Source: an uncultured Gammaproteobacteria bacterium (lineage in GTDB: Bacteria > Patescibacteriota > Patescibacteriia > Magasanikbacterales > UBA922). Taken from it: DNA of 64,000 bases. The notes under the pieces are model-generated. The model worked only from the letters and a program-made list of their open reading frames with translations. It was not told where the DNA came from and searched no databases. The DNA is taken from assembly GCA_964344965.1 (NCBI GenBank), contig CAYFPJ010000006.1, positions 568 to 64,567 on the forward strand. Direction: 5' to 3'. The position numbers and the translations under genes were made by a program. Positions within the stretch are counted from its first letter, which is position 1; each line of letters begins with the position of its first letter. This document shows positions 1,795 to 60,120 of this stretch, in pieces.

Positions 1795-3240
1795 GTGAAT
1801 GTTATGAGAAACAAAATAACAATTGGACACCTACCGATTCTCGATCATCTTATTCTTGGGATAGCGAAAGAGAAAGATACATTCAAGCATTTTTCACTCG
1901 ACGCGGAATTGTTTTCAAATTGGGACGATATAGCAAATGCTCTCACGAATAAAAAAATTGATGGTGCGTTTTTGCTGTTTCCTCTTGCACTTGATGTATT
2001 TCGGAAAACAAAGGACATACAACTTGTTCTCCTTGGACATAGAGAAGGACAGGTGTTGGCTGCCAACAAAGATATTAAAGGTATAAGAAATCTTAGAGGA
2101 AAAAAAGTCTTTGTGCCTCATATATTTTCTACCCATCATATTTTGCTGCACAAATTACTGCAGACAGAAGGACTCACCACACGTGATGTCACGTTGCAGG
2201 TCGGCAACAAAAATATCAAAGACATTGTTGGGGCGCTTGCTGGAAATGATATCCAGGCATTTATTGCTGCTGAGCCTTTTGGAACAGAGTCGCGTCGCTC
2301 CAAGGCAGGTCACATCTTGAGTCTGTCGCATGACGTACAAAGCCATCATATTGATTGTGTTTTGGTACTGAGGAAGGAATTGGTCAACAAACAGCCGGGT
2401 GTGTGCCAAGAATTGGTTGAAAGCTTGGTGAGAGCTGGAATGTTTATCAACGCGTACCCTCGTCAAGCCGCAGAGATGGGAGAAGGGTTTTTGGGGTGGT
2501 CAAAGAAGACGTTGATTGAAGGACTGACGCACGATAAGGGGCATATTTTGTTTTGGGATTTGTTGCCTCGTCTTCAGGATTTTGAAACATTACAAAATAC
2601 TGCAGTTGACGAAATGGGGTTGTGGAAAGACAAGATTGATTTGGAAGCGTTTGTGTATCCTCATTTTGCCCAAACAGCCTATAGAGAATGGATGATTGAT
2701 GTGCGTCGGGAGGTAAAAGATCGAGGCGAAGAACGAACCCTGCCGGGGAGTTTTCAAGAGGCTGTGCAGAGATTTTTAAAGTTTTTTCCTACCACACCGG
2801 CCACATCGATTGCCGGGCTAACATTTACGCGGCCGGGCGAAAAATATCCAAAAGATATCCGAAAGCTGAAAGAAGTTAAGGAGCCGTTTTCTGTGTTTCT
2901 TGAGAAAGTGTTTGATGGACAGGAATTTCTTGTACGAAGCATGTCCAAAGGAAAAAAGTCTTTTTCATTCCTCCGACCTGCTCACAACACGCTTCCTGAT
3001 CGTGTTTTGTGCGAATTGTCAATTGATACTGCACAGCGTTGCCTTCAAGCATTGCAATTTGGAGAAAAAATAAAAGTGTTTGCAGATTTTCATGACGATT
3101 CAGCTGAAGTAGACTTGGTGAGTCCAAAAAAAGAAATCATTATGTTGCAAAAAGGCGATGTGGTATGGTGTTCACTTGGGTATACAACGTTTCGTTTTTT
3201 GGTACTTTTGTTGGTTCAAGGAAATTTTTCTGGTGAATGA
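1795..3240 (+). CDS. NMT1/SsuA/THI5-like (NitT/TauT-type substrate-binding fold) protein without signal peptide, fused to a roughly 170-aa C-terminal domain of unknown function
   Basis: N-terminal roughly 300 aa (ITIGHLPILDHLILGIAKEKDTF...GALAGNDIQAFIAAEPFGTESRRSKAGHIL) resembles periplasmic-binding-protein type 2 NMT1/SsuA domains. No signal peptide is present, so it is predicted cytoplasmic. C-terminal region: FSVFLEKVFDGQEF...IIMLQKGDVVW. Confidence 0.5.
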   Translation: MNVMRNKITIGHLPILDHLILGIAKEKDTFKHFSLDAELFSNWDDIANALTNKKIDGAFLLFPLALDVFRKTKDIQLVLLGHREGQVLAANKDIKGIRNLRGKKVFVPHIFSTHHILLHKLLQTEGLTTRDVTLQVGNKNIKDIVGALAGNDIQAFIAAEPFGTESRRSKAGHILSLSHDVQSHHIDCVLVLRKELVNKQPGVCQELVESLVRAGMFINAYPRQAAEMGEGFLGWSKKTLIEGLTHDKGHILFWDLLPRLQDFETLQNTAVDEMGLWKDKIDLEAFVYPHFAQTAYREWMIDVRREVKDRGEERTLPGSFQEAVQRFLKFFPTTPATSIAGLTFTRPGEKYPKDIRKLKEVKEPFSVFLEKVFDGQEFLVRSMSKGKKSFSFLRPAHNTLPDRVLCELSIDTAQRCLQALQFGEKIKVFADFHDDSAEVDLVSPKKEIIMLQKGDVVWCSLGYTTFRFLVLLLVQGNFSGE

Positions 3241-3297
3241 TAATATCTTTGAGTTTTGCATAGTCGTCTATATGGCGATTTTATAATACGAAAATTT

Positions 3298-3334
3298 GTC
3301 CTGCCGAGAATACGGCAGGACTCCATGTTTTTTC
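3298..3334 (+). terminator. Rho-independent terminator after the NMT1-like gene
   Basis: GTCCTGCCG-AGAATA-CGGCAGGAC perfect 9-bp stem (3298-3321), followed by TCCATGTTTTTTCC. Confidence 0.7.
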
Positions 3335-3337
3335 CCT

Positions 3338-3374
3338 CATAAAATAAATCGTCCCGCAGAGGATACTGCGGGAC
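3338..3374 (-). terminator. Rho-independent terminator for the convergent minus-strand gene 3469..3900
   Basis: GTCCCGCAG-AGGATA-CTGCGGGAC (3351-3374) has nearly the same stem as the neighbouring terminator. On the minus strand it is followed by GATTTATTTT. Confidence 0.6.
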
Positions 3375-3395
3375 ACCACCGTCCACAAGTAGGTA

Positions 3396-3424
3396 TTGAC
3401 AGATATCTCGTGTTATGCGATAAT
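3396..3424 (+). promoter_or_regulatory. Strong sigma-70-like promoter consensus with no downstream plus-strand ORF (orphan, possibly antisense or sRNA)
   Basis: TTGACA (3396-3401), 17-bp spacer, GATAAT (3419-3424). It points into the 3' end of the minus-strand ORF 3469..3900. Confidence 0.3.
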
Positions 3425-4016: not shown

Positions 4017-4049
4017 GTTAGGCGATGTATTTTTATAATCATTTTTCAA
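4017..4049. repeat. Left arm of a 33-bp inverted repeat flanking the 4050-4611 cassette
   Basis: GTTAGGCGATGTATTTTTATAATCATTTTTCAA is the reverse complement of 4612-4645 (TTGAAAAATGATTATAAAAATATTTCGCCTAAC) with 2 mismatches. Confidence 0.7.
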
Positions 4050-4072
4050 TATCAAATAACAAAGAAAACTTT

Positions 4073-4565
4073 TTATTTTTGCCCTTGGATTTGTTGCAGA
4101 CTTTCATAGAACCTCTGCTTGGCCGTACTAATAATCTCCATGCCTTTCATTATTTTTGCCAAACTTTCGGGGTCAGCACTGTACTTAGAGATGACGCGCT
4201 CTAAATCGGGATAGTGTGATCTCGCATCGTGTGCAATGTGGTGGTCAATATAGAGTCGAGCAAATCCTTTTTGGCGGCGTTGTCCACTACCATCGCTCGG
4301 ATTGGTCACGAACTCAGCAGGAAATTTCCTGCGCCTTTTCAATACCAGCCTTGAGTAATTCCTCGAAATGACGAGCCGCCAAATATCGCTGTTTAGCGAA
4401 TTCACGCCATTCATCTTGTGTAAGATTTCCGCTCTCGACAGCCTCTAACACAGGGTTATCAATCATCCTTTCGGTGATTTCTCTAAGGCGTGAATGGATT
4501 TGCTCGAGTCCAGCCTCAGCTTGCTCGATGTGAGCGCCATCTCGCGGTCCATCTGGATTAGTCAT
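4073..4565 (-). pseudogene. hypothetical protein split by an apparent frameshift (ORFs 4314..4565 and 4073..4414 overlap by 100 nt); GC-richer than its surroundings
   Basis: The upstream ORF ends ...EELLKAGIEKAQEISC* and the downstream frame continues KFPAEFVTNPSDGSG...IDHHIAHDARSHYPDLERVISKY.... The frame change falls at about 4320-4335, in GAAATTTCCTGC. The locus is flanked by a 33-bp IR pair. Confidence 0.4.
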
Positions 4566-4611
4566 AAATCTTTGTTTAGTGGTAGCAAAAATAAAAAGTT
4601 TTCCTCGTTAT

Positions 4612-4645
4612 TTGAAAAATGATTATAAAAATATTTCGCCTAACT
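4612..4645. repeat. Right arm of the 33-bp inverted repeat flanking the 4050-4611 cassette
   Basis: Reverse complement of 4017-4049 with 31/33 identity. Confidence 0.7.
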
Positions 4646-12029: not shown

Positions 12030-12938
12030 TTACAACATTTTACCAAATCCATTCACAAAAGTTTTACTATCCATTGCTTTTTTTCCTTCCAATTGCAATT
12101 CATGAATTTCGATTGAATTGTCACTAGTTCCTACGTATAGTTTATCACTATCTACTACCACTTTGCCAGGTGAAAAACTTTTTTCAGCAGGAGAAATTTT
12201 GAGCAGTTTTAATCTTTTGTCATTCCAGGTTGTCCAGACTCCTGGCCAAGGTGTCATGCCCCGATATTGATTGTATATTTCTTGGGCAGTATTCTGCCAG
12301 TTTACTTCGCCATCTTCTCGAGAAAGTTTGGAACAGAGGGTAACTTGAGATTCATCTTGTGGTATTGGCTTTAGACTACCTTCGATATAGCCAAGGATGG
12401 TCTCCATAAGGGCTTGTAGTCCCACGTCAGCAAGTTTTTTGTCGAGATCGAGGTAAGTGTCATCCGGAGCAATATAAATCTCTTTTTGGAGCAATATTGG
12501 TCCAGAGTCCATACCTTTGTCCATCAGCATGATGCTTACTCCAGTTTTCTCTTCTCCATTGATGAGAGCCGACTGAATAGGTGAGGCACCACGATACTTT
12601 GGCAGAAGTGACGTGTGAACATTTATGGTTCCATATTTTGGAATGTCCAATATGCTTTTGGGTATAAGCAAACCATATTGTGCTACGATGGCTAAGTCAT
12701 AAGTCTTCAATCTTAAGTCTTCAATCTTAAGTCTTTCAGGTTGTTGTACTGGTATATTATGCTGCTCTGCTAAGATTTTTGTAGGTGGAGAAATAAGTTC
12801 TTTTTTTCTTCCTGCTGGACGATCTGGCTGGGTGATGACTAGCTGAATATCAAAAAGGGGGCTGTCTATCAGTCCTTGGAGGATGGTGGCGGCGAAGTCA
12901 TGCGTGCCGAAGAATACTGTTGAAATTTTTTTATCCAT
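12030..12938 (-). CDS. fmt: methionyl-tRNA formyltransferase
   Basis: 302 aa. It has the N-terminal formyltransferase fold (VFFGTHDFAATILQGL...) and a Fmt C-terminal domain. The gene contains a 14-bp tandem duplication (AAGATTGAAGACTT x2) at about 12706-12733. Confidence 0.85.
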   Translation of the reverse strand: MDKKISTVFFGTHDFAATILQGLIDSPLFDIQLVITQPDRPAGRKKELISPPTKILAEQHNIPVQQPERLKIEDLRLKTYDLAIVAQYGLLIPKSILDIPKYGTINVHTSLLPKYRGASPIQSALINGEEKTGVSIMLMDKGMDSGPILLQKEIYIAPDDTYLDLDKKLADVGLQALMETILGYIEGSLKPIPQDESQVTLCSKLSREDGEVNWQNTAQEIYNQYRGMTPWPGVWTTWNDKRLKLLKISPAEKSFSPGKVVVDSDKLYVGTSDNSIEIHELQLEGKKAMDSKTFVNGFGKML

Positions 12939-12942
12939 TTTA

Positions 12943-13084
12943 ATCTTTAAGCGGTTTTATTCCTCGATGCTTGCATCGAAAAAGTGAAAACTAACATTGG
13001 TTGAAATAAGATTTTCTGCCAATACCCCGCAGCTTGCTGCGGGGATGGCCCGATGAAGTCTTACTTAAACCAAATTTACTTTTA
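12943..13084. repeat. 142-bp element, left copy; perfectly identical in inverted orientation to 41728-41869
   Basis: Exact reverse-complement match over 142 bp. It contains the hairpin CCCCGCAGC-TTG-CTGCGGGG and lies between the stop of gene 13082..14083 and the start of fmt. Confidence 0.9.
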
Positions 13085-14083
13085 TTTTTTTGTAATTTTA
13101 TAACGAACTCCATCACGAATACTCTCTAGGAGTAGTTGAGCTTCTTTTTGGGTGATTTGAGATTTCTTTCTACCATTAGCTATGGCTTGAAGTGCTTTAT
13201 TGACACTATTGTAGTCTATGTGTGTTCCTTTGGGTAATTTTTTCAATAACTCTGTCTTTGAAAAGATGTTGTCAAAAAAAATTTGGATTCCATATTTTTC
13301 TTCTAATTTTTCTGCATTTTGCCACATATATACAGCAGTATTTTTGTACAATGATGCTATGTATAATTCTCCACTACTTAGTAACTTTCTTACCAAAGCA
13401 TCAAATATTTGATTGAATTCTGTTTTTTCATCATCTTCATTTATTTGATCGTACATGCTGGCATAATACAGCTCGCCATAAGTATCTAGTATCACATCAA
13501 ATTCCTGAAAATCCCTTAACTCAAGAATACTCTCTCTGATTTTGTCTACTTTTTTTTGCTTTCCTTTTCCCAATAATTTTTTTATAAGAGTTTCTCTATC
13601 TTTGCTGTAGGGTATTTCTTTCTTTTTTATATGATGGTCTGGAAGTGCTGCATGACTCCTGGTTACAGCTTGTCGTGTTTTTTCTACAATTTCTTCTCTG
13701 GTAAATTTAAGATTTGACAAACTTGTTCCAATTATTTTCACATCATCACCTAGCGCTTCTCTCACTTGCTCGTTATACAATCCCAGCCCAGCACCATTAT
13801 TCAATACTTTTAATTTTCTTTTTTCTCCTGCGGCACGCAACTTCTCTACTTTTTTTGGAAATACATCTCCTATGAATTCAACTCCATGAGAAGAGTTTAT
13901 GGTACCATTGTTAATTTCTATCAAATCATTGAATTTTCCTTCAAGTCTGGTTTGCATTAAAGTGGAATCTTCCAAATGTTTTTTTGCTCCTATTTTTTTT
14001 ACTTTGAGCACTCCAAATTCTGGGTCTTCTGGATCCAAAAATTTTTTTCCTCTATCTCTTATTTTCATATTTTTTATAAACAA
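13082..14083 (-). CDS. hypothetical protein with a possible Rossmann/SAM-MTase-like glycine motif
   Basis: 333 aa. KVLNNGAGLGLY...DVKIIGTS resembles methyltransferase motif I/II. The C-terminal half is helical and of unknown function. Confidence 0.35.
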   Translation of the reverse strand: MFIKNMKIRDRGKKFLDPEDPEFGVLKVKKIGAKKHLEDSTLMQTRLEGKFNDLIEINNGTINSSHGVEFIGDVFPKKVEKLRAAGEKRKLKVLNNGAGLGLYNEQVREALGDDVKIIGTSLSNLKFTREEIVEKTRQAVTRSHAALPDHHIKKKEIPYSKDRETLIKKLLGKGKQKKVDKIRESILELRDFQEFDVILDTYGELYYASMYDQINEDDEKTEFNQIFDALVRKLLSSGELYIASLYKNTAVYMWQNAEKLEEKYGIQIFFDNIFSKTELLKKLPKGTHIDYNSVNKALQAIANGRKKSQITQKEAQLLLESIRDGVRYKITKK

Positions 14084-17343: not shown

Positions 17344-17352
17344 ATTGTTATG

Positions 17353-17432
17353 TGCGAAATTACGAAAGGTACGAAATATACGAAAATAAATAATTTAGTT
17401 CGTATATTTCGTACTGTTCGTATCTTCGTACA
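17353..17432. promoter_or_regulatory. Long palindrome built from 9-bp-spaced TACGAA/TTCGTA repeats (candidate operator or bidirectional terminator)
   Basis: Perfect 16-bp IR GTACGAAATATACGAA (17369-17384) pairs with TTCGTATATTTCGTAC (17399-17414) across a 14-nt loop. It is extended by further TACGAAA / TTCGTA repeats, with TACGAA recurring 3 times on the left arm and TTCGTA 4 times on the right. Related ATTCGTG / ATTCGCA repeats occur at 16518-16542. Confidence 0.5.
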
Positions 17433-17436
17433 TGAT

Positions 17437-19726: not shown

Positions 19727-19802
19727 AAGGATTAGAGTTCTCGGCGAAAGTCCAATAAGTGCCCACCCAGCTTTCGCCTGGAATCCTTTTTTGTATTATG
19801 AT
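19727..19802. repeat. Dispersed hairpin repeat, family GGATT...CGGCGAAAG...CTTTCGCC..GGAATCC-Tn (copy B)
   Basis: AAGGATTAGAGTTCTCGGCGAAAG...CAGCTTTCGCCTGGAATCCTTTTTT. It is closely related to 23636-23695. Confidence 0.6.
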
Positions 19803-22123: not shown

Positions 22124-23635
22124 ATGAAAAAAACATTCTACATAACAACCACACTGCCATATGTAAATGCAGATCCACATATTGGTTTTGCATTAGAAAT
22201 TATCCAGGCTGATGCCATTGCCAGATATCACACCCTTCTCGGTGAAGAGGTTGTGTTCAATACAGGTACAGATGAGCATGGCCTCAAAATTTATCGTAAG
22301 GCAGAAGAGAGGGGGATCACACCACAAGCATATTGTGACGAGTATGCAGCTAAGTTTGATGCTCTCAAGGATGCCCTAAATTTGAGCTATACCAAGTTTG
22401 TCCGCACTACTGATAAGCATCATGTCGTGGCTGCTCAAGAATTTTGGAAACTGTGTGATGCTAGTGGGGATATTTACAAGAAAAATTATAAAATAAAATA
22501 CTGTGTGGGCTGCGAACTTGAAAAAACTGATTCAGAACTGGTAGACGACAAATGTCCAATTCATCCAACATATGAATTGGAGCAAATTGACGAAGAAAAT
22601 TATTTCTTTAGATTTTCTGCTTACCAAGATAAGCTCCTGGAGCTTTACAAAAGAGAGGATTTCATTATTCCAAAAAATCGATCCACAGAGATAGCCAATT
22701 TTGTCAAAAATGGTCTGCAGGATTTCAGTATTTCGAGACTGAAAGAAAAAATGCCTTGGGGTGTGTCAGTACCAGGGGATGATGAGCATGTGATGTACGT
22801 TTGGTTCGATGCTCTTGTGAATTATATATCCACTATTGGCTGGCCAGACAACAAACAAGAATTTGAGAAAAATTGGCCTGGAGTGCAGGTGGCAGGTAAA
22901 GATAATTTGCGTCAACAAAGTGCCATGTGGCAAGCTATGCTGCTTTCTGCTGGGCTTGATCCATCAAGGCAGATTTTCATCCACGGTTTCATCAGCTCTG
23001 AGGGGCAAAAAATGAGCAAAAGTATTGGAAATGTCGTGGCACCCTATGAAGTGGTAGAAAAGTATGGTACTGATGCTGTTAGGTTTTATTTACTGGGAGC
23101 TTTACCTAGTTATGATGACGGAGATTGGTCCAAGAAAAGATTTGAAGAATTTTATACAGCCCATCTTGCCAATGGAGTGGGGAATTTGACAAGTCGGATA
23201 CTGACGATGTTGGAGAAGTATTGTAATGGTGTGGTGTCAGAGATGAACAAGACAGCAGACAACAGGCAACAGACAGCAGATTTTTGGGGGCAGTATACTG
23301 AAGCATTGACAAAGTATAATTTTGAAGAGTCGGTCAGTCTTGTTAATGGATTAGTTGGGCAATTGGATGGAGTTATTTCAGAACAAAAACCATGGGAAAA
23401 GGCAAAAGCTGGTGAAGATATTTCTGGACTACTATATCAGCTTGCCGAAGGGTTGCGTCACCTTGGCTTAGCTTTATTGCCAATAATTCCAGAAACAGCT
23501 GAGAAAATTTTGTATAGCTTGGGAATTGATGTAGATAATTTGGAAGATTTGGAAGTGGAGAAAGAGTGGGGGAGGCTGGAGCCGGGAACAAAGATTAAAA
23601 AAGGTGATATGTTGTTTCCGAGATTAGAGGCATAA
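22124..23635 (+). CDS. metG: methionine--tRNA ligase
   Basis: Core MetRS motifs P-Y-V-N-A-D-P-H-I-G, KMSKS (KMSKSIGN) and the anticodon-binding domain. There is no C-terminal tRNA-binding extension. Confidence 0.92.
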   Translation: MKKTFYITTTLPYVNADPHIGFALEIIQADAIARYHTLLGEEVVFNTGTDEHGLKIYRKAEERGITPQAYCDEYAAKFDALKDALNLSYTKFVRTTDKHHVVAAQEFWKLCDASGDIYKKNYKIKYCVGCELEKTDSELVDDKCPIHPTYELEQIDEENYFFRFSAYQDKLLELYKREDFIIPKNRSTEIANFVKNGLQDFSISRLKEKMPWGVSVPGDDEHVMYVWFDALVNYISTIGWPDNKQEFEKNWPGVQVAGKDNLRQQSAMWQAMLLSAGLDPSRQIFIHGFISSEGQKMSKSIGNVVAPYEVVEKYGTDAVRFYLLGALPSYDDGDWSKKRFEEFYTAHLANGVGNLTSRILTMLEKYCNGVVSEMNKTADNRQQTADFWGQYTEALTKYNFEESVSLVNGLVGQLDGVISEQKPWEKAKAGEDISGLLYQLAEGLRHLGLALLPIIPETAEKILYSLGIDVDNLEDLEVEKEWGRLEPGTKIKKGDMLFPRLEA

Positions 23636-23695
23636 AAGGATTCCCGGCGAAAGCCGGGTTAGTGCTCACCCGGCTTTCGCCGGGAATCCTTTTTC
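23636..23695 (+). terminator. Hairpin repeat family B/C acting as the metG terminator
   Basis: GGATTCCCGGCGAAAGCCGGG...CCCGGCTTTCGCCGGGAATCC is a perfect roughly 20-bp IR, followed by TTTTTC. Confidence 0.8.
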
Positions 23696-26296: not shown

Positions 26297-26390
26297 TTAG
26301 GAAATAGAACGCGGATTTAACGGATTGGACGGATCAAAACAGATCCATTCAAATCTATTTAATCCGTGTCATCTGTGTTCTATTTCCTAA
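26297..26390. repeat. MITE-like element, family 2, copy 1 (TIR TTAGGAAATAGAAC / GTTCTATTTCCTAA)
   Basis: 14-bp perfect terminal inverted repeats around an interior carrying ATCCATT...AATCCGTGT. A second copy is at 47832-47936. Confidence 0.7.
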
Positions 26391-27581: not shown

Positions 27582-27615
27582 CAGCTAGTAAGCAATAAGC
27601 AGAATAAGCTGTAGG
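27582..27615. repeat. Left 34-bp inverted repeat flanking the four-helix-bundle gene
   Basis: CAGCTAGTAAGCAATAAGCAGAATAAGCTGTAGG is the reverse complement of 27996-28029 with 33/34 identity. Confidence 0.8.
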
Positions 27616-27617
27616 CA

Positions 27618-27986
27618 TTAAGTAAATTTTTTTTGGCTTTGTATCCATCTTGTTAATAATTTGCCTACTTCTTCAGTACTCGAAAGAGTACTTTTGTATT
27701 GTTCTCGTGTAATATAATTTAGGTCTCGCATGAGCAAAATATGATATTTTAATTCTTCTAAGGATGCATCTGCTTGATTATAAAAACGAATACTATCCTT
27801 TATACTTTGTCTCCTAAAACCTTCCACAATATTTGCCGGTATTGAAGCGGCAGCTCTACGTGCCTGACTAGTTAGACCAAACAGTTCATGTTTAGGATTT
27901 TGTTCAGTCAGTTTGTATATTAGTAAAACATTTCTATGAGCCTTTTGCCACACAAGTAAATCTTTAAAAGTTTGAATTCCTCCCAT
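27618..27986 (-). CDS. four-helix-bundle protein (family typically found inside 23S rRNA intervening sequences)
   Basis: FKDLLVWQKAHRNVLLIYKLTEQNPKHELFGLTSQARRAAASIPANIVEG is the hallmark of this family (described under TIGR02436). Confidence 0.85.
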   Translation of the reverse strand: MGGIQTFKDLLVWQKAHRNVLLIYKLTEQNPKHELFGLTSQARRAAASIPANIVEGFRRQSIKDSIRFYNQADASLEELKYHILLMRDLNYITREQYKSTLSSTEEVGKLLTRWIQSQKKFT

Positions 27987-27995
27987 ATAAAATTG

Positions 27996-28029
27996 CTTAC
28001 AGCTTATTCTGCTTATTGCTTACTAGCTG
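27996..28029. repeat. Right 34-bp inverted repeat flanking the four-helix-bundle gene; it overlaps the last codons of the mpl/murC-like gene
   Basis: CTTACAGCTTATTCTGCTTATTGCTTACTAGCTG. The ligase C-terminus (VQLVSNKQNKL*) is encoded by the repeat. Confidence 0.8.
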
Positions 28030-37483: not shown

Positions 37484-37504
37484 GTCTCCGAAATTACATC
37501 AATA

Positions 37505-37541
37505 CCTCGTCCCGTACCGAGGTACGAGGTCGGGATTAAAA
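37505..37541. repeat. Dispersed hairpin repeat, family TCGTCCCG...TCGGGATTAAA (copy D)
   Basis: CCTCGTCCCGTACCGAGGTACGAGGTCGGGATTAAAA. Its reverse-complement relative is at 49237-49270. Confidence 0.6.
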
Positions 37542-41514: not shown

Positions 41515-41730
41515 TTTTTTATGTCTAAAATAAATTTTGCCTCTATAAAGATAAATTTTTTGGTAGTTGGTTTGGCTATTGTAGCCGTCTGCATGCCATC
41601 TGCCGCCCAGGCAGCTGATATTGTGGTTGGTGGTGATTGTACTCTGGTGGATGCCGTTTATGCGGCCAACCAGGATCAGGCAGTGGGTGAATGTAGTGCT
41701 GGAGAAGTTGGAGAGGACACTATTCAATAA
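41503..41730 (+). pseudogene. N-terminal fragment (signal peptide plus CSLREA-like domain) of a Pmp-type beta-helix surface-protein gene, terminated by the inserted 142-bp element
   Basis: MSKINFASIKINFLVVGLAIVAVCMPSAAQA signal peptide, then ADIVVGGDCTLVDAVYAANQDQAVGECSAGEVGEDTIQ. The stop TAA is the first triplet of the repeat. Confidence 0.6.
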
Positions 41731-41869
41731 AAGTAAATTTGGTTTAAGTAAGACTTCATCGGGCCATCCCCGCAGCAAGCTGCGGGGTATTGGCAGAAAA
41801 TCTTATTTCAACCAATGTTAGTTTTCACTTTTTCGATGCAAGCATCGAGGAATAAAACCGCTTAAAGAT
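41728..41869. repeat. 142-bp element, right copy (exact inverted duplicate of 12943-13084), inserted in the Pmp-like gene
   Basis: Perfect identity to the reverse complement of 12943-13084. Deleting exactly these 142 bp joins ...DTIQ to LTEDVVLTEVANF... in frame. Confidence 0.9.
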
Positions 41870-41881
41870 TTAACTGAAGAT

Positions 41882-45915: not shown

Positions 45916-46335
45916 ATGAAAACAGTCCTCATTACTGGCACCTTCGATATTCTCCATCTTGGTCATATATACTTTTTCAAACAAGCTAGAGAATATGGTG
46001 ATAATCTTCACGTCATAATAGCAAGAGATAGTAATGTTGAGAAAATAAAAGGTCACAAACCCGTAAACACAGAGGATGAAAGATTAGATCTATTATCTTA
46101 TGTCAAATTAGTTGATAAAGTTATCCTCGGTGATGAAGACAATCCTTACAAATATATTGAAGAATTACAGCCAGACGTGATAGCACTCGGCTATGATCAA
46201 AATGTCTTTGTAGATAAGTTAGAAAATTTTTTAAAAGAGAAAAATATTGATGCTGAGATTGTCAGATTGAAACCACATCGAGAAGATAGGTTAAAGAGCG
46301 GGAGGATTAAGGATTATATTGAAAGTAATATCTAA
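45916..46335 (+). CDS. cytidylyltransferase-like nucleotidyltransferase (HxGH family; RibL/TagD-like)
   Basis: VLITGTFDILHLGHIYFF contains the (T/H)xGH nucleotide-binding motif. Its 139-aa size fits single-domain cytidylyl/adenylyl-transferases. Confidence 0.75.
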   Translation: MKTVLITGTFDILHLGHIYFFKQAREYGDNLHVIIARDSNVEKIKGHKPVNTEDERLDLLSYVKLVDKVILGDEDNPYKYIEELQPDVIALGYDQNVFVDKLENFLKEKNIDAEIVRLKPHREDRLKSGRIKDYIESNI

Positions 46336-46368
46336 CACAGATTACAGGGATTTTATTGGATTACACAG
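46335..46368. repeat. Left inverted repeat of the GxxExxY cassette, copy 1
   Basis: ACACAGATTACAGGGATTTTATTGGATTACACAG is the reverse complement of 46771-46799 with 28/29 identity. Confidence 0.75.
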
Positions 46369-46380
46369 AAAAAAAACAAT

Positions 46381-46773
46381 ATGCTAAAGGAGGTAGATTT
46401 AACAAGAGAAATAATTGGGATAGCAATGAAAGTACACGGAGAACTTGGTCCTGGATTTAAAGAAGTGATCTATCATCAAGCCATGTTGTCCGATTTGATT
46501 GAGAATGATTTTGATGTAGAAACAGAAGTGGAATTTGATGTAATTTACAAAAATAAAATAATTGGTATATTTAGAATTGATCTATTGGTAAATAAAAAAG
46601 TATTAATAGAGCTAAAGGCAATAAGCGGTGAGATACCTAAAATATTTAAATCACAAGTTGTCTCTTATTTGAAAGCAAGTAATTTGGAAGTTGGTCTACT
46701 GCTTAATTTTGGAAACCCAAGTCTTGAAATAAAACGATTTGGAAACTACAAAGACTATAAAAGATCAGTGTAA
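46381..46773 (+). CDS. GxxExxY family protein, copy 1
   Basis: 130 aa with GIAMKVHGELGPGFKEVIYHQA (G-x-x-E-x-x-Y) and ...IDLLVNKKVLIELKA. It is 126/130 identical to the copy at 59671..60063. Confidence 0.8.
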   Translation: MLKEVDLTREIIGIAMKVHGELGPGFKEVIYHQAMLSDLIENDFDVETEVEFDVIYKNKIIGIFRIDLLVNKKVLIELKAISGEIPKIFKSQVVSYLKASNLEVGLLLNFGNPSLEIKRFGNYKDYKRSV

Positions 46774-46799
46774 TCCAATAAAATCCTTGTAATCTGTGT
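46771..46799. repeat. Right inverted repeat of the GxxExxY cassette, copy 1; it abuts the ATG of the next gene
   Basis: TAATCCAATAAAATCCTTGTAATCTGTGT. Confidence 0.75.
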
Positions 46800-47819
46800 A
46801 TGAATAGACTCCTCATTGCCACAACCAACCAAGGAAAGCTAAAAGAGATCAAACATTTTTTAGCAGATTTACCATTTGAAATTATTGGACTGTCTGATCT
46901 TGATAAAGAATATGACGAACCAGAAGAAACAGAAGAGACCTTGATGGGAAATTCTGTGCTGAAAGCAAAGTACTATGGAGAAAAGACAGGCCTAATTTCA
47001 CTAGCTGATGATACTGGATTATTTTGTCACGGTCTTGATAACTGGCCTGGAGTTCGTGCCGCAAGGGTAGCGAAGACAGATGACGAACGCTGCCTAGCTC
47101 TCTTAGAAAAAATGAATGGAATAAAAGACAGATCAGCATCATTCAGGTCTGGAATTTCGATTTATGACCCAAACACCAAATCAACATTTTTTACATTGGG
47201 AGAATTGCATGGTGAAATTCTGACTGAAATGCCTGGTGAGAGAAAAAATGGATTTTGTTATGATCCACTTTTTTTCCTAAAAGAATTTGGCAAAACAACA
47301 GACGAGTTGGAAACTGTCGAAAAAAATGCAATTAGCCATCGCGGCAAAGCATTGGTAAAAACAAAATACTTTCTCCAAAATCAGTACAGTGCTAAGCACA
47401 TTGTCGTTCCAATTGCTCTCATTATCCAAGATGGAAAAATTCTGATGCACAAACGCAACGATCCTCATCGACCAGACTACCACGGCAAGTGGGAATTTCC
47501 CGGTGGGACGATGGAATTTGGAGAATCATTTGAAGAAAATATAATTCGTGAAACCAGAGAAGAAGCTGGATATGATGTGGAAGTAATAAAAAAGTTAGAT
47601 CACACAGCTGTCGAAAATCAAGAATTGCCAACTTTTCAATATCAAGTCTATCTAGTACCATTTCTTTGTAAGATTATTGGTGGAGAAGGGGAGTATAGTG
47701 ACGCTGAAGTGATGGAGCAGAGATGGTTTGAGCTTGATGATGTGGTCAATCATGATTTGATTGGGGAGAATCGGAGGATGTTTGAGAAACTCTTATCAGA
47801 GCTAAAGGAGAGTATTTAA
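46800..47819 (+). CDS. fusion protein: non-canonical purine NTP pyrophosphatase (RdgB/Ham1) N-domain plus Nudix hydrolase C-domain
   Basis: RdgB-like LLIATTNQGKLKEIKHFL...DTGLFCHGLDNWPGVRAARVA. C-terminal Nudix box GKWEFPGGTMEFGESFEENIIRETREEAGYDV. Confidence 0.8.
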   Translation: MNRLLIATTNQGKLKEIKHFLADLPFEIIGLSDLDKEYDEPEETEETLMGNSVLKAKYYGEKTGLISLADDTGLFCHGLDNWPGVRAARVAKTDDERCLALLEKMNGIKDRSASFRSGISIYDPNTKSTFFTLGELHGEILTEMPGERKNGFCYDPLFFLKEFGKTTDELETVEKNAISHRGKALVKTKYFLQNQYSAKHIVVPIALIIQDGKILMHKRNDPHRPDYHGKWEFPGGTMEFGESFEENIIRETREEAGYDVEVIKKLDHTAVENQELPTFQYQVYLVPFLCKIIGGEGEYSDAEVMEQRWFELDDVVNHDLIGENRRMFEKLLSELKESI

Positions 47820-47831
47820 AAAACACACAAA

Positions 47832-47936
47832 TTAGGAAATGGCACACAGATGACACAGATCTAATGGATTTACACGGATAAAATCTATCAAAATCCATTT
47901 AATCCGTGTGCCGAAGGCCTGTGTTCTATTTCCTAA
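47832..47936. repeat. MITE-like element, family 2, copy 2
   Basis: TTAGGAAAT...ATCCATTTAATCCGTGTG...GTTCTATTTCCTAA. It shares its TIRs and internal blocks with 26297-26390. Confidence 0.65.
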
Positions 47937-47959
47937 TTTAGAAATCTAATAATTTTATT

Positions 47960-49204: not shown

Positions 49205-49236
49205 TTCAAGGTTCATAAATTTTTAAAAAAATAGTT

Positions 49237-49336
49237 TAATCCCTACCTCGTTCCTCGGTACGGGACGAGGGGTTGGTTTAATTCCCCGAGGCTCGCCTCG
49301 AAAAAAAGGTTCCAGGGCTTGCCCTGGGGTTCATAA
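49237..49336. repeat. Hairpin repeat copy E (reverse-complement orientation of family TCGTCCCG...TCGGGATTAAA) plus two further GC hairpins, acting as the serS terminator region
   Basis: TAATCCCTACCTCGTTCCTCGGTACGGGACGAGG is the reverse complement of the 37505-37541 type. It is followed by GAGGCTCGCCTC-GAAAAAAA and CCAGGGCTTGCCCTGG. Confidence 0.6.
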
Positions 49337-55256: not shown

Positions 55257-55585
55257 AGTGGAGGAAGGAGATAACAAAAGAACCTTACTTAATATAGTAT
55301 AAAGCGTCGCACAATGTATCTTATACGACATATTATACTTAGTGTGTTTATCTTAAGCACTTTCCACCTTTCAAATACTTTTTATTATTAAGCCTATTCC
55401 TACAGTTAGAAAGTTTTTTAATTCTTTCACTCGTTTAGTGTGTGTTTAGTCACATTAACTGGTACCTGCTGCTGAAGACCACATCTTCTTTATACTTAGC
55501 TTCGCCCCCCTATTCTTTCATTTTACGACACTACAGAATAACGTTTCAAAATTAGGAGGTATAGAGTATCGTCTTTTTGACTCTC

Positions 55586-55680
55586 TCATCCTGAGCGCAG
55601 CGAAGGATCTTTAGTAAGGAAAATATTCTCCAAAGGAAAATATTCTCCATAAGAAATATCCTTCGCTGCGCTCAGGATGA
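55586..55680. other. Large perfect stem-loop (22-23 bp stem, 49-nt loop with internal direct repeats) inside a 570-bp ORF-free region
   Basis: CATCCTGAGCGCAGCGAAGGAT (55587-55608) pairs with ATCCTTCGCTGCGCTCAGGATG (55658-55679). The loop carries GGAAAATATTCTCCA twice. Confidence 0.7.
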
Positions 55681-55828
55681 CATTATTAAAATATAAATAA
55701 AAAATCCAGAATTTTAAAAAATCACTGGACAATTTTTTGTCTAACCTATTTATCTATATCAAATTGAAAGACTTCTCCCCTTCCCCATTCACTCTCCCCT
55801 GCTAAATATATTGTGCGACACATCACAA

Positions 55829-59644: not shown

Positions 59645-59676
59645 ACACAGATTACAAGGATTTTATTGGATTACAC
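59645..59676. repeat. Downstream inverted repeat of the GxxExxY cassette, copy 2
   Basis: ACACAGATTACAAGGATTTTATTGGATTACAC is identical to the reverse complement of the copy-1 right flank 46771-46799. Confidence 0.75.
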
Positions 59677-60063
59677 TGATCTTTTATAGTCTTTATAATT
59701 TCCAAATCGTTTTATTTCAAGACTTGGGTTTCCAAAATTTAACAGTAGTCCGACTTCCAGATTGCTTGCTTTTAAGTAAGAGACTACTTGTGATTTAAAT
59801 ATTTTAGGCATTTCACCACTTATTGCTTTCAACTCTATTAATACTTTCTTATTTACCAATAAATCAATTCTAAATAAACCTATTATTTTGTTTTTGTAAA
59901 TTACATCAAATTCTACCTCTGTTTCTACATCTAAATCATCCTCAATCAAATCGGACAACATGGCTTGATGATAGATCACTTCTTTAAATCCAGGACCAAG
60001 TTCTCCGTGTATTTTCATTGCTATCCCAATTATTTCTCTTGTTAAATCTACCTCCTTTAGCAC
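59671..60063 (-). CDS. GxxExxY family protein, copy 2 (GTG start)
   Basis: 126/130 aa identical to 46381..46773. It sits in the opposite orientation with related flanks. Confidence 0.8.
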   Translation of the reverse strand: MLKEVDLTREIIGIAMKIHGELGPGFKEVIYHQAMLSDLIEDDLDVETEVEFDVIYKNKIIGLFRIDLLVNKKVLIELKAISGEMPKIFKSQVVSYLKASNLEVGLLLNFGNPSLEIKRFGNYKDYKRSV

Positions 60064-60120
60064 ACAAAATTTATTTTCTGTGTAATCTTTTAAAAATCCT
60101 TTAATCTGTGTAAGACTACA
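60064..60120. repeat. Upstream flank of GxxExxY cassette copy 2 (degenerate relative of the copy-1 left IR)
   Basis: The reverse complement contains ACACAGATTAAAGGATTTTTAAAAGATTACACAGAAAATAA, against ACACAGATTACAGGGATTTTATTGGATTACACAGAAAAAAA in copy 1. Confidence 0.55.

Follow-up and report, generated by a model that had tools for sequence, protein, structure and literature searches.

Layout of the two cassettes

The 64,000-nt window analysed here, a stretch of Magasanikbacteria DNA (contig CAYFPJ010000006.1), contains two copies of a mini-element, 465 nt long in copy 1, located between housekeeping genes. Each copy consists of a single small nuclease gene of the GxxExxY family enclosed by two inverted-repeat (IR) arms, a unit referred to below as a cassette (Table 1). 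Cassette 1 is fitted tightly between its neighbours: the CTP-transferase-like gene upstream has its TAA stop ending at position 46335, the first base of the 5′ arm, and the 3′ arm ends at 46799, with 0 nt left before the ATG of the RdgB-Nudix gene at 46800. At cassette 2, the open reading frame (ORF) of the SpoU methylase runs into the 5′ arm and terminates inside it (…LHRLKDF*), and the 3′ arm ends 3 nt short of the GltX ATG. Cassette 1 has arms of 35 nt, spaced 395 nt apart, which are complementary at 33/35 positions (94%), with a single G.T and a single A.A mismatch. Three occurrences of the 32-nt IR core were counted in the window, against an expectation of 0.00 from 100 shuffles. Both cassettes are poor in GC (29-30% vs 37.5% for the window). 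Degenerate further copies were not detected in the window by a relaxed tblastn search.

The original prediction for this DNA, an IR-bounded GxxExxY ORF of 130 aa with a second copy on the opposite strand, is confirmed by the arms, the ORFs and the profile matches. The GTG start of copy 2 (ORF 59671-60063) and the right IR of copy 1 ending exactly at the RdgB-Nudix ATG (46799 / 46800) also proved correct. Several of its figures are revised here: the IRs, given as 29-34 bp, measure 35 nt; the outer end of copy 2, placed at 60120, is at 60111; and the proteins, reported as identical in 126 of 130 residues, agree in 125.

The duplicated unit is the IR-to-IR cassette. The two copies share 427/467 nt over the whole cassette, 365/393 nt in the ORF, 35/35 nt in the 3′ arm and 29/35 nt in the 5′ arm; the earlier range of 85-100% identity for the shared flanks stands for the 3′ arm and is corrected for the 5′ arm. 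In the alignment of both copies, similarity is lost at the outer ends of the arms and is confined to the IR-to-IR unit. The 100 nt beyond each cassette end match at 57/100 and 52/100 positions, which compares with 53.6 ± 4.0 for random 100-mers of the window. The neighbours of copy 1 (the CTP-transferase-like and RdgB-Nudix genes) and those of copy 2 (the SpoU methylase and GltX genes) are unrelated, and terminal inverted repeats are common to copies at unrelated sites.

The number and arrangement of the copies, just two in 64 kb, inverted and 12.8 kb apart, might have suggested a plain segmental duplication of this part of the chromosome, with no cassette behaviour. This explanation is excluded by the flank comparison, since the sequence beyond the IR ends shows no more than random similarity. 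The unrelated neighbour genes also argue against it, as do the corresponding junctions of relatives, which are empty or otherwise occupied, and we give it almost no credence. Cassette mobility, as put forward in the original prediction, is supported in this respect: long identical flanks beyond the IRs were looked for, and similarity stops at the IR ends.

Table 1. Positions of the GxxExxY cassettes, their parts and related elements in the window.
Feature	Position	Strand	Description
Cassette 1, whole	46335-46799	+	IR arm / GxxExxY ORF / IR arm
Cassette 1, 5′ IR arm	46335..46369	+	Four ~9-nt units: ACACAGATT ACAGGGATT TTATTGGATT ACACAGA
GxxExxY gene, copy 1	46381..46773	+	130 aa, PD-(D/E)XK nuclease
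Cassette 1, 3′ IR arm	46765..46799	+	Holds the last two ORF codons and the stop (TCA GTG TAA)
Cassette 2, whole	59645-60111	-	IR arm / GxxExxY ORF / IR arm
Cassette 2, 5′ IR arm	60077..60111	-	29/35 identical to the 5′ arm of copy 1
GxxExxY gene, copy 2	59671..60063	-	130 aa, GTG start
Cassette 2, 3′ IR arm	59645..59679	-	35/35 identical to the 3′ arm of copy 1
PF05635 cassette	27582..28029	-	36-nt IRs, 97% complementary, short AAGC-type units
ORF-less hairpin	47832..47938	.	ACACRGAT 9-nt units as in GxxExxY cassettes; RdgB-Nudix|SerRS spacer; fold z -7.6
ORF-less hairpin	26297..26390	.	ACACRGAT 9-nt units; fold z -9.8

The GxxExxY protein

Both cassette proteins match the profiles TIGR04256 (GxxExxY; 125.8 and 124.5 bits, cut-off 35) and PF13366 (PDDEXK_3; 120.6 and 120.0 bits, cut-off 22), the latter over profile positions 2-117 of 117 (E 5.7e-35 for copy 1). 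The residues invariant in 41 homologues are G25xxE28xxY31, E49, D67, E77-x-K79, and Q92xxxY96. The D…ExK of GxxExxY proteins is the catalytic signature of PD-(D/E)XK nucleases, and QxxxY is typical of the RecB/Cas4 branch. An AlphaFold model (predicted local distance difference test score, pLDDT, of 66; good for residues 1-80) displays a helix-helix-strand-strand-strand-helix-strand core as in PD-(D/E)XK enzymes. The best Foldseek matches among PDB structures were weak, and all of them are PD-(D/E)XK nucleases: the R2 element endonuclease, Cas4 SSO0001, I-Bth0305I, and AddAB/AdnAB. The match to the catalytic domain of I-Bth0305I had a probability of 0.96 and an E value of 0.04. Sequence searches against solved structures gave no meaningful matches.

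The GxxExxY family is large, with 10,736 clusters at 50% identity (E ≤ 0.001), and its function was given as ‘Unknown’ (PMC3424549). About one-fifth of the best 150 family representatives are proteins of ~260-280 aa with two tandem GxxExxY domains. These two-domain fusions suggest that the working unit of the GxxExxY protein is a dimer. They also recall the single-chain derivatives of dimeric homing endonucleases.

Divergence of the two copies

The proteins of copies 1 and 2 are identical in 125/130 positions, the exceptions being V18I, N42D, F44L, I63L, and I85M; the ORFs differ at 28 nucleotides. The GxxExxY ORF is under strong purifying selection. By the Nei-Gojobori method, the synonymous divergence (dS) between the copies is 0.32 and the non-synonymous divergence (dN) is 0.02. 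The resulting omega (dN/dS) of 0.06, obtained in the comparison of synonymous and non-synonymous changes that had been proposed along with the prediction, means that both copies encode a strongly constrained protein.

The synonymous difference is distributed unevenly along the gene (Fisher p 3.6e-5): it is 0 in codons 1-41, 0.45 in codons 42-108, where dS reaches 0.68, and 0.15 in codons 109-130. Nucleotide-level constraint was considered as a cause of the identical ORF ends of both copies and rejected, because synonymous divergence is uniform along the gene in nine other pairs of homologues. Judging from this pattern, gene conversion between old paralogues residing in one genome is the best explanation of the uneven divergence.

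Gain and loss at orthologous junctions

Look-ups of the exact proteins returned both loci again, and nothing else, on metagenome contigs from several samples of one project. The closest named homologues of the cassette proteins belong to Candidatus Magasanikbacteria (Patescibacteria/candidate phyla radiation, CPR). Filled and empty sites were compared on syntenic contigs of related Magasanikbacteria, which are designated below by L numbers. The contig of the closest relative ends inside the RdgB-Nudix gene, and the junction of copy 1 lies beyond its coverage.

Repeated insertion, internal deletion and loss are seen at orthologous junctions. The SpoU|GltX junction, occupied by copy 2 in the window, is empty in L108/L109 (GltX 71% identical), where the SpoU stop overlaps the GltX start in an ATGA (…TTTATGATC…). 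In the closest relative, L105/L106 (GltX 78% identical), the same junction contains an ORF-less remnant of ~50 nt. The L105 remnant reads TCTTACATAGA + ATATCTGTGTAATCCAAAATAATCAGTTTAATCTGTGT + AATATG and is made up of the first bases of the 5′ arm followed by a recognisable 3′ arm (ATATCTGTGTAATCCAAAATAATCAGTTTAATCTGTGT). The insertion of copy 2 is therefore older than the split from L105, and the gene was deleted later in the L105 lineage. A different cassette is found at this junction in L107 (3553-4000; GltX 73% identical). It carries a 105-aa GIY-YIG ORF between IRs of its own, the right one of which reaches up to the GltX ATG.

The operon around copy 1 has the order aminoacyl-tRNA synthetase (aaRS) – CTP-transferase – RdgB-Nudix. 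In L092 and L095-L097, a homologous GxxExxY cassette (70-71% protein identity) occupies the aaRS|CTP-transferase junction, one junction upstream of that used by copy 1; in the window, this junction is empty and has a 6-nt spacer. The CTP-transferase|RdgB junction of L095 contains an 86-nt mini-cassette, which is composed of the 5′ arm, the first five ORF codons and the 3′ arm. Its arm units match the flavour of the full-length cassette in L095, and it extends as far as the RdgB ATG. Close homologues are also located at Cupin|GT2, PGI|GT2, and MiaB|MiaA junctions. Within one clade, the cassettes occupy no fewer than seven different junctions, with no single conserved recognition site, and the cassette is co-directional with both neighbours at 7/7 sites. 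The comparison of insertion sites suggested with the original prediction has thus revealed junctions of relatives that are filled, empty, remnant-bearing or occupied by another type of cassette.

Architecture of the cassettes across the family

The survey of the wider family covered 80 non-redundant GxxExxY genes with sufficient flanking DNA, taken from metagenome, genome and viral contigs of many phyla; a scan of representative genome contigs, which do not include the source genome, returned just six distant loci. IRs were scored by local alignment of the upstream region with the reverse complement of the downstream region. A score of at least 32 was reached by 50% of the 80 genes; among 83 control ORFs located on these contigs, 1.2% did so (Mann-Whitney p 1.7e-15).

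The arms are arrays of 9-nt units. Their mean lag-9 autocorrelation is 0.47 (0.29 in the control), and 9 was the best lag in 50/74 arms. The sequence of the unit, i.e. its flavour, varies between elements within the Magasanikbacteria clade (ACACAGATT, ACACTGATT, ACACGGA, and ACATTGATT), and within one element a single flavour is present in all units of both arms. Many family members from outside the CPR have the ends TGTCTGAAC…GTTCAGACA. Throughout the clade, the last two codons of the ORF and its stop (TCN GTN TAA, ‘…SV*’) belong to the innermost unit of the arm.

The fit between neighbouring genes is not limited to the window. The stop of the upstream ORF lies -6 to +24 nt from the start of the 5′ arm in 20/29 IR-positive cassettes. 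A start codon lies -5 to +3 nt from the end of the 3′ arm in 13/33 IR-positive cassettes with a co-directional downstream ORF, an enrichment that is somewhat inflated because the nearest in-frame start codon was taken as the downstream start. IR arms of 9-nt units, often fitted between an upstream stop and a downstream ATG, are common across phyla.

Carriage by phages was represented by just two matches in the viral contig collection. One predicted viral contig (L115, IMGVR_UViG_3300005058_000014) has a GxxExxY cassette at ~2960-3400 with the arms TGTCTTGAAC…GGTTCAGACA, the 3′ arm abutting the ATG of the downstream ORF. By its N-terminus, the product of this ORF may be a type I restriction-modification specificity subunit.

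The arms as DNA or RNA elements

The arms could act as DNA or, after transcription, as RNA. In the transcript of copy 1, a closing stem of 32 bp is predicted in both the minimum free energy (MFE) and the centroid fold (MFE -114.9 kcal/mol, z -4.7). The fold of copy 2 is weaker (z -2.2) because its 5′ arm is degenerate. The signature of a selected RNA stem was not detected: in 45 IRs, 75 G.T and 83 A.C arm mismatches were counted (p 0.58), i.e. there is no excess of wobble pairs. Since the arms lack this excess, have a 9-nt periodicity and differ in flavour from element to element, they are read as DNA-level sites. On this sequence evidence, they are regarded as primarily DNA sites for a sequence-specific factor, and the obvious candidate for this factor is the encoded nuclease. 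A secondary role of the arm stem in RNA processing is possible.

The predicted stem could also be taken as the mark of an essentially immobile, RNA-level relic. The cassettes would then be ancient insertions with a stem cut by RNase III, as in the intervening sequences (IVS) of 23S rRNA, and their distribution would result from vertical descent and differential loss. The IVS of Coxiella provides a precedent: RNase III cleaves its 28-bp terminal stem, and its terminus contains heptameric repeats (PMC4990558). The age of the copies is likewise consistent with such a relic: the L105 remnant dates the copy 2 insertion as old, and copies 1 and 2 are old paralogues. The mismatch counts speak against it. 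Moreover, the cassettes of one clade occupy at least seven junctions, including adjacent junctions of one operon in sister lineages, and so many different junctions require repeated insertion. Copy 2 has kept an intact protein despite its degenerate 5′ arm (29/35), and a plain stem needs neither arrays of 9-nt units nor an element-specific flavour. We consider a relic of this kind rather improbable.

Consensus scans for promoters and terminators in the cassettes gave no more sites than shuffled sequence, which fits expression by read-through of the operon.

Related hairpins and cassettes with other cargo

The two ORF-less hairpins listed in Table 1 are ~100 nt long and share the outer ends TTAGGAAAT.../...ATTTCCTAA (also written TTAGGAAAT(A/G)G…/…CTATTTCCTAA). 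The one at 47832-47938 is absent from the closest relative (L110 20368-20442) and is probably a miniature relative of the GxxExxY cassettes.

The PF05635 cassette has the same general build and an unrelated cargo. The latter (27618-27986) is a gene for a 122-aa four-helix-bundle or 23S-rRNA-IVS protein (PF05635, E 3.5e-37), with a weak match to bAvd. The Mur-ligase-like ORF upstream of this cassette ends inside the arm. Genes for four-helix-bundle proteins in L013 and L033 also have short-unit arrays alongside, which are in direct orientation in L033. Three small ‘orphan’ families, GxxExxY, the four-helix-bundle/IVS protein and small GIY-YIG proteins, are thereby linked to one architecture.

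These elements bear on whether the nuclease gene is only a passenger. If it were, the arms would be hairpins resembling miniature inverted-repeat transposable elements (MITEs) or REPINs and would be moved in trans, e.g. by an IS200-type Y1 transposase or a RAYT. The GxxExxY gene would then have been retained for being addictive or of use to the host, for instance as a defence or repair nuclease. Several observations agree with this: the window has ORF-less hairpins of ACACRGAT units, the unrelated cargo genes (PF05635, GIY-YIG) have an equal IR-bounded layout, a Y1_Tnp gene (L003 4345-4803) follows cassette 2 at ~5 kb, and strong purifying selection fits a host-useful gene.

Other observations connect the arms with the gene they enclose. 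The mini-cassettes of L095 and L105 retain start codons of the ORF or one arm, and are deletion derivatives rather than naive hairpins in which a gene was captured afterwards. Within a genome, arm flavour differs by cargo family (the window, L013, and L033), which links the arms with the cargo rather than with a single enzyme acting genome-wide. Throughout the clade, the innermost arm unit includes the final codons of the ORF and its stop, and the association of nuclease and arms extends across phyla with no recurrent transposase neighbour in the examined loci. Passive cargo is therefore an unlikely explanation in our view.

Proposed mode of spread and its weak points

With moderate confidence, we favour a selfish, DNA-level, IR-bounded mobile nuclease cassette, with a cycle of insertion at operon junctions, decay into hairpins and loss. 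The two loci would represent paralogous insertions of a minimal selfish element (~465 bp) whose sole gene encodes a small RecB-like PD-(D/E)XK nuclease. The cassette is probably expressed by operon read-through, with no evident promoter or terminator of its own, and its snug stop/start fit would preserve the translational coupling of the flanking genes. The nuclease, which we infer to be the mobilising enzyme, would recognise the flavour-specific 9-nt arrays, probably as a dimer, and make DNA breaks. Host recombination or repair may turn these breaks into insertion, conversion or loss. In the transcript, by analogy with rRNA IVS, pairing of the arms would form a stem of ~32 bp that RNase III could cut; this would be secondary and would limit the harm done to the host.

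A number of points weigh against this explanation. Transposition or homing was not directly observed, and a nuclease of 130 aa is not known to be sufficient for transposition. The occurrence of unrelated cargo (four-helix bundle, GIY-YIG) in a like architecture raises the possibility that a factor from the host or a third party, instead of the cargo, acts on the arms. Clear IRs are present in just about half of the sampled family members, and the start-codon enrichment at the 3′ arm is somewhat overestimated, as stated above. No direct repeat indicative of target-site duplication was visible at ~10 independent junctions inspected. Copies at different sites are never near-identical (dS 0.68 in the middle of the gene for copies 1 and 2), and copy 2 was inserted before a split of lineages that now share 78% GltX identity, which leaves present-day activity unproven. 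Finally, a pLDDT of 66 marks the structural model as moderate in quality, and its Foldseek matches are weak (best E 0.014).

A more far-reaching proposal, which we put forward tentatively and hold to be possible rather than probable, is that GxxExxY cassettes constitute an unrecognised class of minimal autonomous mobile elements in many phyla. In these elements, a dimeric RecB-like PD-(D/E)XK nuclease of ~130 aa would recognise its own 9-nt flavour at both ends and drive the insertion of ~0.45 kb precisely into operon stop/start junctions. If this were true, the mechanism would also underlie the ORF-bearing rRNA IVS, whose origin and mode of spread have been an open question ever since the early 1990s. 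Independently of this proposal, four findings taken together, the gene's travel as a discrete cassette, its stop/start fit, its turnover at orthologous junctions and its strong selection, provide a large family of unassigned function with a concrete and testable biology, that of a selfish nuclease cassette.

Further repeats in the window

The window contains other repeats as well. A hairpin with 57-nt arms at 55575-55691 contains CATCCTGAGCGCAGCGAAGGATC, and a similar motif forms the IR of the L107 GIY-YIG cassette; this hairpin may be a miniature of the GIY-YIG cassette family. A 630-bp element at 4017-4644, between a 143-aa ORF and the CysRS gene, has non-periodic IRs of ~65 nt (GTTAGGCGATG…/…CGCCTAAC). 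Its interior is GC-richer and has an apparent frameshifted minus-strand gene with a faint match to TenA/THI-4 (E 0.047). Two intergenic sequences of 151 nt (12936-13086 and 41726-41876) are inverted relative to each other, 99% identical and 28.6 kb apart. They show a strong fold (z -4.75) around a GC-rich hairpin and no Rfam match, and may represent either a gene for a small RNA or a further mobile hairpin.

Additional families of intergenic hairpins or repeats are located at 17350-17433 (TACGAAA-type short units), at 19738-19793 and 23631-23693 (TTCCCGGCGAAAGCCGGG), and at 37492-37540 and 49235-49283 (CCTCGTCCCGTACCGAGGTACGAGG). The genome seems to be rich in several families of hairpin repeats. 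On the source contig, ~5 kb past the right end of the window (L003 4345-4803), a gene for an IS200-type Y1 transposase (PF01797, 152 aa) was identified; the transposase near cassette 2 is a candidate trans-acting enzyme for hairpin repeats.

Comparison with known systems

MITEs and hairpin repeats that are co-transcribed with genes include the Correia/NEMIS elements of Neisseria and REPINs with their RAYT transposases. Like the cassettes, MITEs have terminal inverted repeats, an intergenic position within transcription units, hairpins in mRNA and ORF-less miniatures. Unlike MITEs and transposons with terminal inverted repeats, full cassettes carry a conserved nuclease, a 130-aa PD-(D/E)XK protein encoded by their sole ORF, and have no DDE, Y1/HUH or serine transposase. 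Their arms are arrays of 9-nt units, and no duplication of TA or any other target site is visible.

Homing endonuclease genes, including those for the PD-(D/E)XK enzymes I-Ssp6803I and I-Bth0305I, resemble the cassettes in being small selfish nuclease genes. Both are also present at some orthologous sites and absent from others, and both pass through rounds of gain, decay and loss. The targets of the cassettes, however, are unrelated gene junctions and not one conserved site, and the cassette gene always travels with its own IR arms, in contrast to the arm-less homing endonuclease genes.

Integron cassettes are similar in having a promoterless single gene that is expressed by read-through and an imperfect palindrome. 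They possess one 3′ attC and depend on an integrase and an attI platform, whereas two arms bracket the GxxExxY gene and the cassettes are scattered in housekeeping operons. No integrase was found among the Pfam-annotated genes around the cassettes on the source contig or among the genes called in the examined loci.

The closest parallel in layout is to the ORF-bearing IVS of rRNA genes, such as the 23S rRNA IVS of Leptospira and Coxiella with their S23p (PF05635) ORF. Like the GxxExxY cassettes, these IVS are ~430-480 nt long and have a single small ORF and complementary termini (stem of ~28-35 bp). The terminus of the Coxiella IVS contains short tandem repeats, as the cassette arms do. IVS are also sporadically distributed and regarded as selfish (PMC4990558; PMC11270868). 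Non-intron insertions in the rRNA genes of CPR bacteria code for 23S_rRNA_IVP or GIY-YIG proteins, and PDDEXK_3 is not among the protein domains tabulated for such rRNA insertions (PMC11270868). A link to IVS is provided by two cassettes of like build described above, the PF05635 cassette of the window (27582-28029) and the L107 GIY-YIG cassette at the junction of copy 2.

There are also differences from IVS. By definition, IVS are inserted in a helix of an rRNA gene, at 23S helix 25 or 45 or at 16S sites, and RNase III removes them from the transcript with no religation. The GxxExxY cassettes are located between protein-coding genes and not in rRNA helices, both of their ORFs belong to PF13366 and not to S23p / 23S_rRNA_IVP (PF05635), and the pattern of arm mismatches gives no sign of selection on an RNA stem. 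In the window, a tRNA scan found nothing and an Rfam scan gave no match above threshold; conserved motifs of 16S or 23S rRNA were not detected in ~100 loci. Identification as IVS by location was ruled out, since no rRNA was found in the window or the examined loci; the cassettes are therefore not IVS in the defined sense.

Full-text searches of the literature retrieved no published description of GxxExxY cassettes. GxxExxY genes were reported beside cas and reverse transcriptase (RT) genes and treated as neighbours of those systems (PMC3936711; PMC8934634). Selfish insertion into operons offers a simpler reading of the GxxExxY genes in cas and RT loci. Cassettes in operons for cas, restriction-modification or tRNA-modification genes can mislead guilt-by-association analyses by appearing as functional partners. 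What is new here is an element, both IVS-like and MITE-like, in protein-coding operons, with a PD-(D/E)XK cargo and arms built as 9-nt arrays. Since its architecture equals that of rRNA IVS, a tractable cassette system could be used to address how IVS spread.

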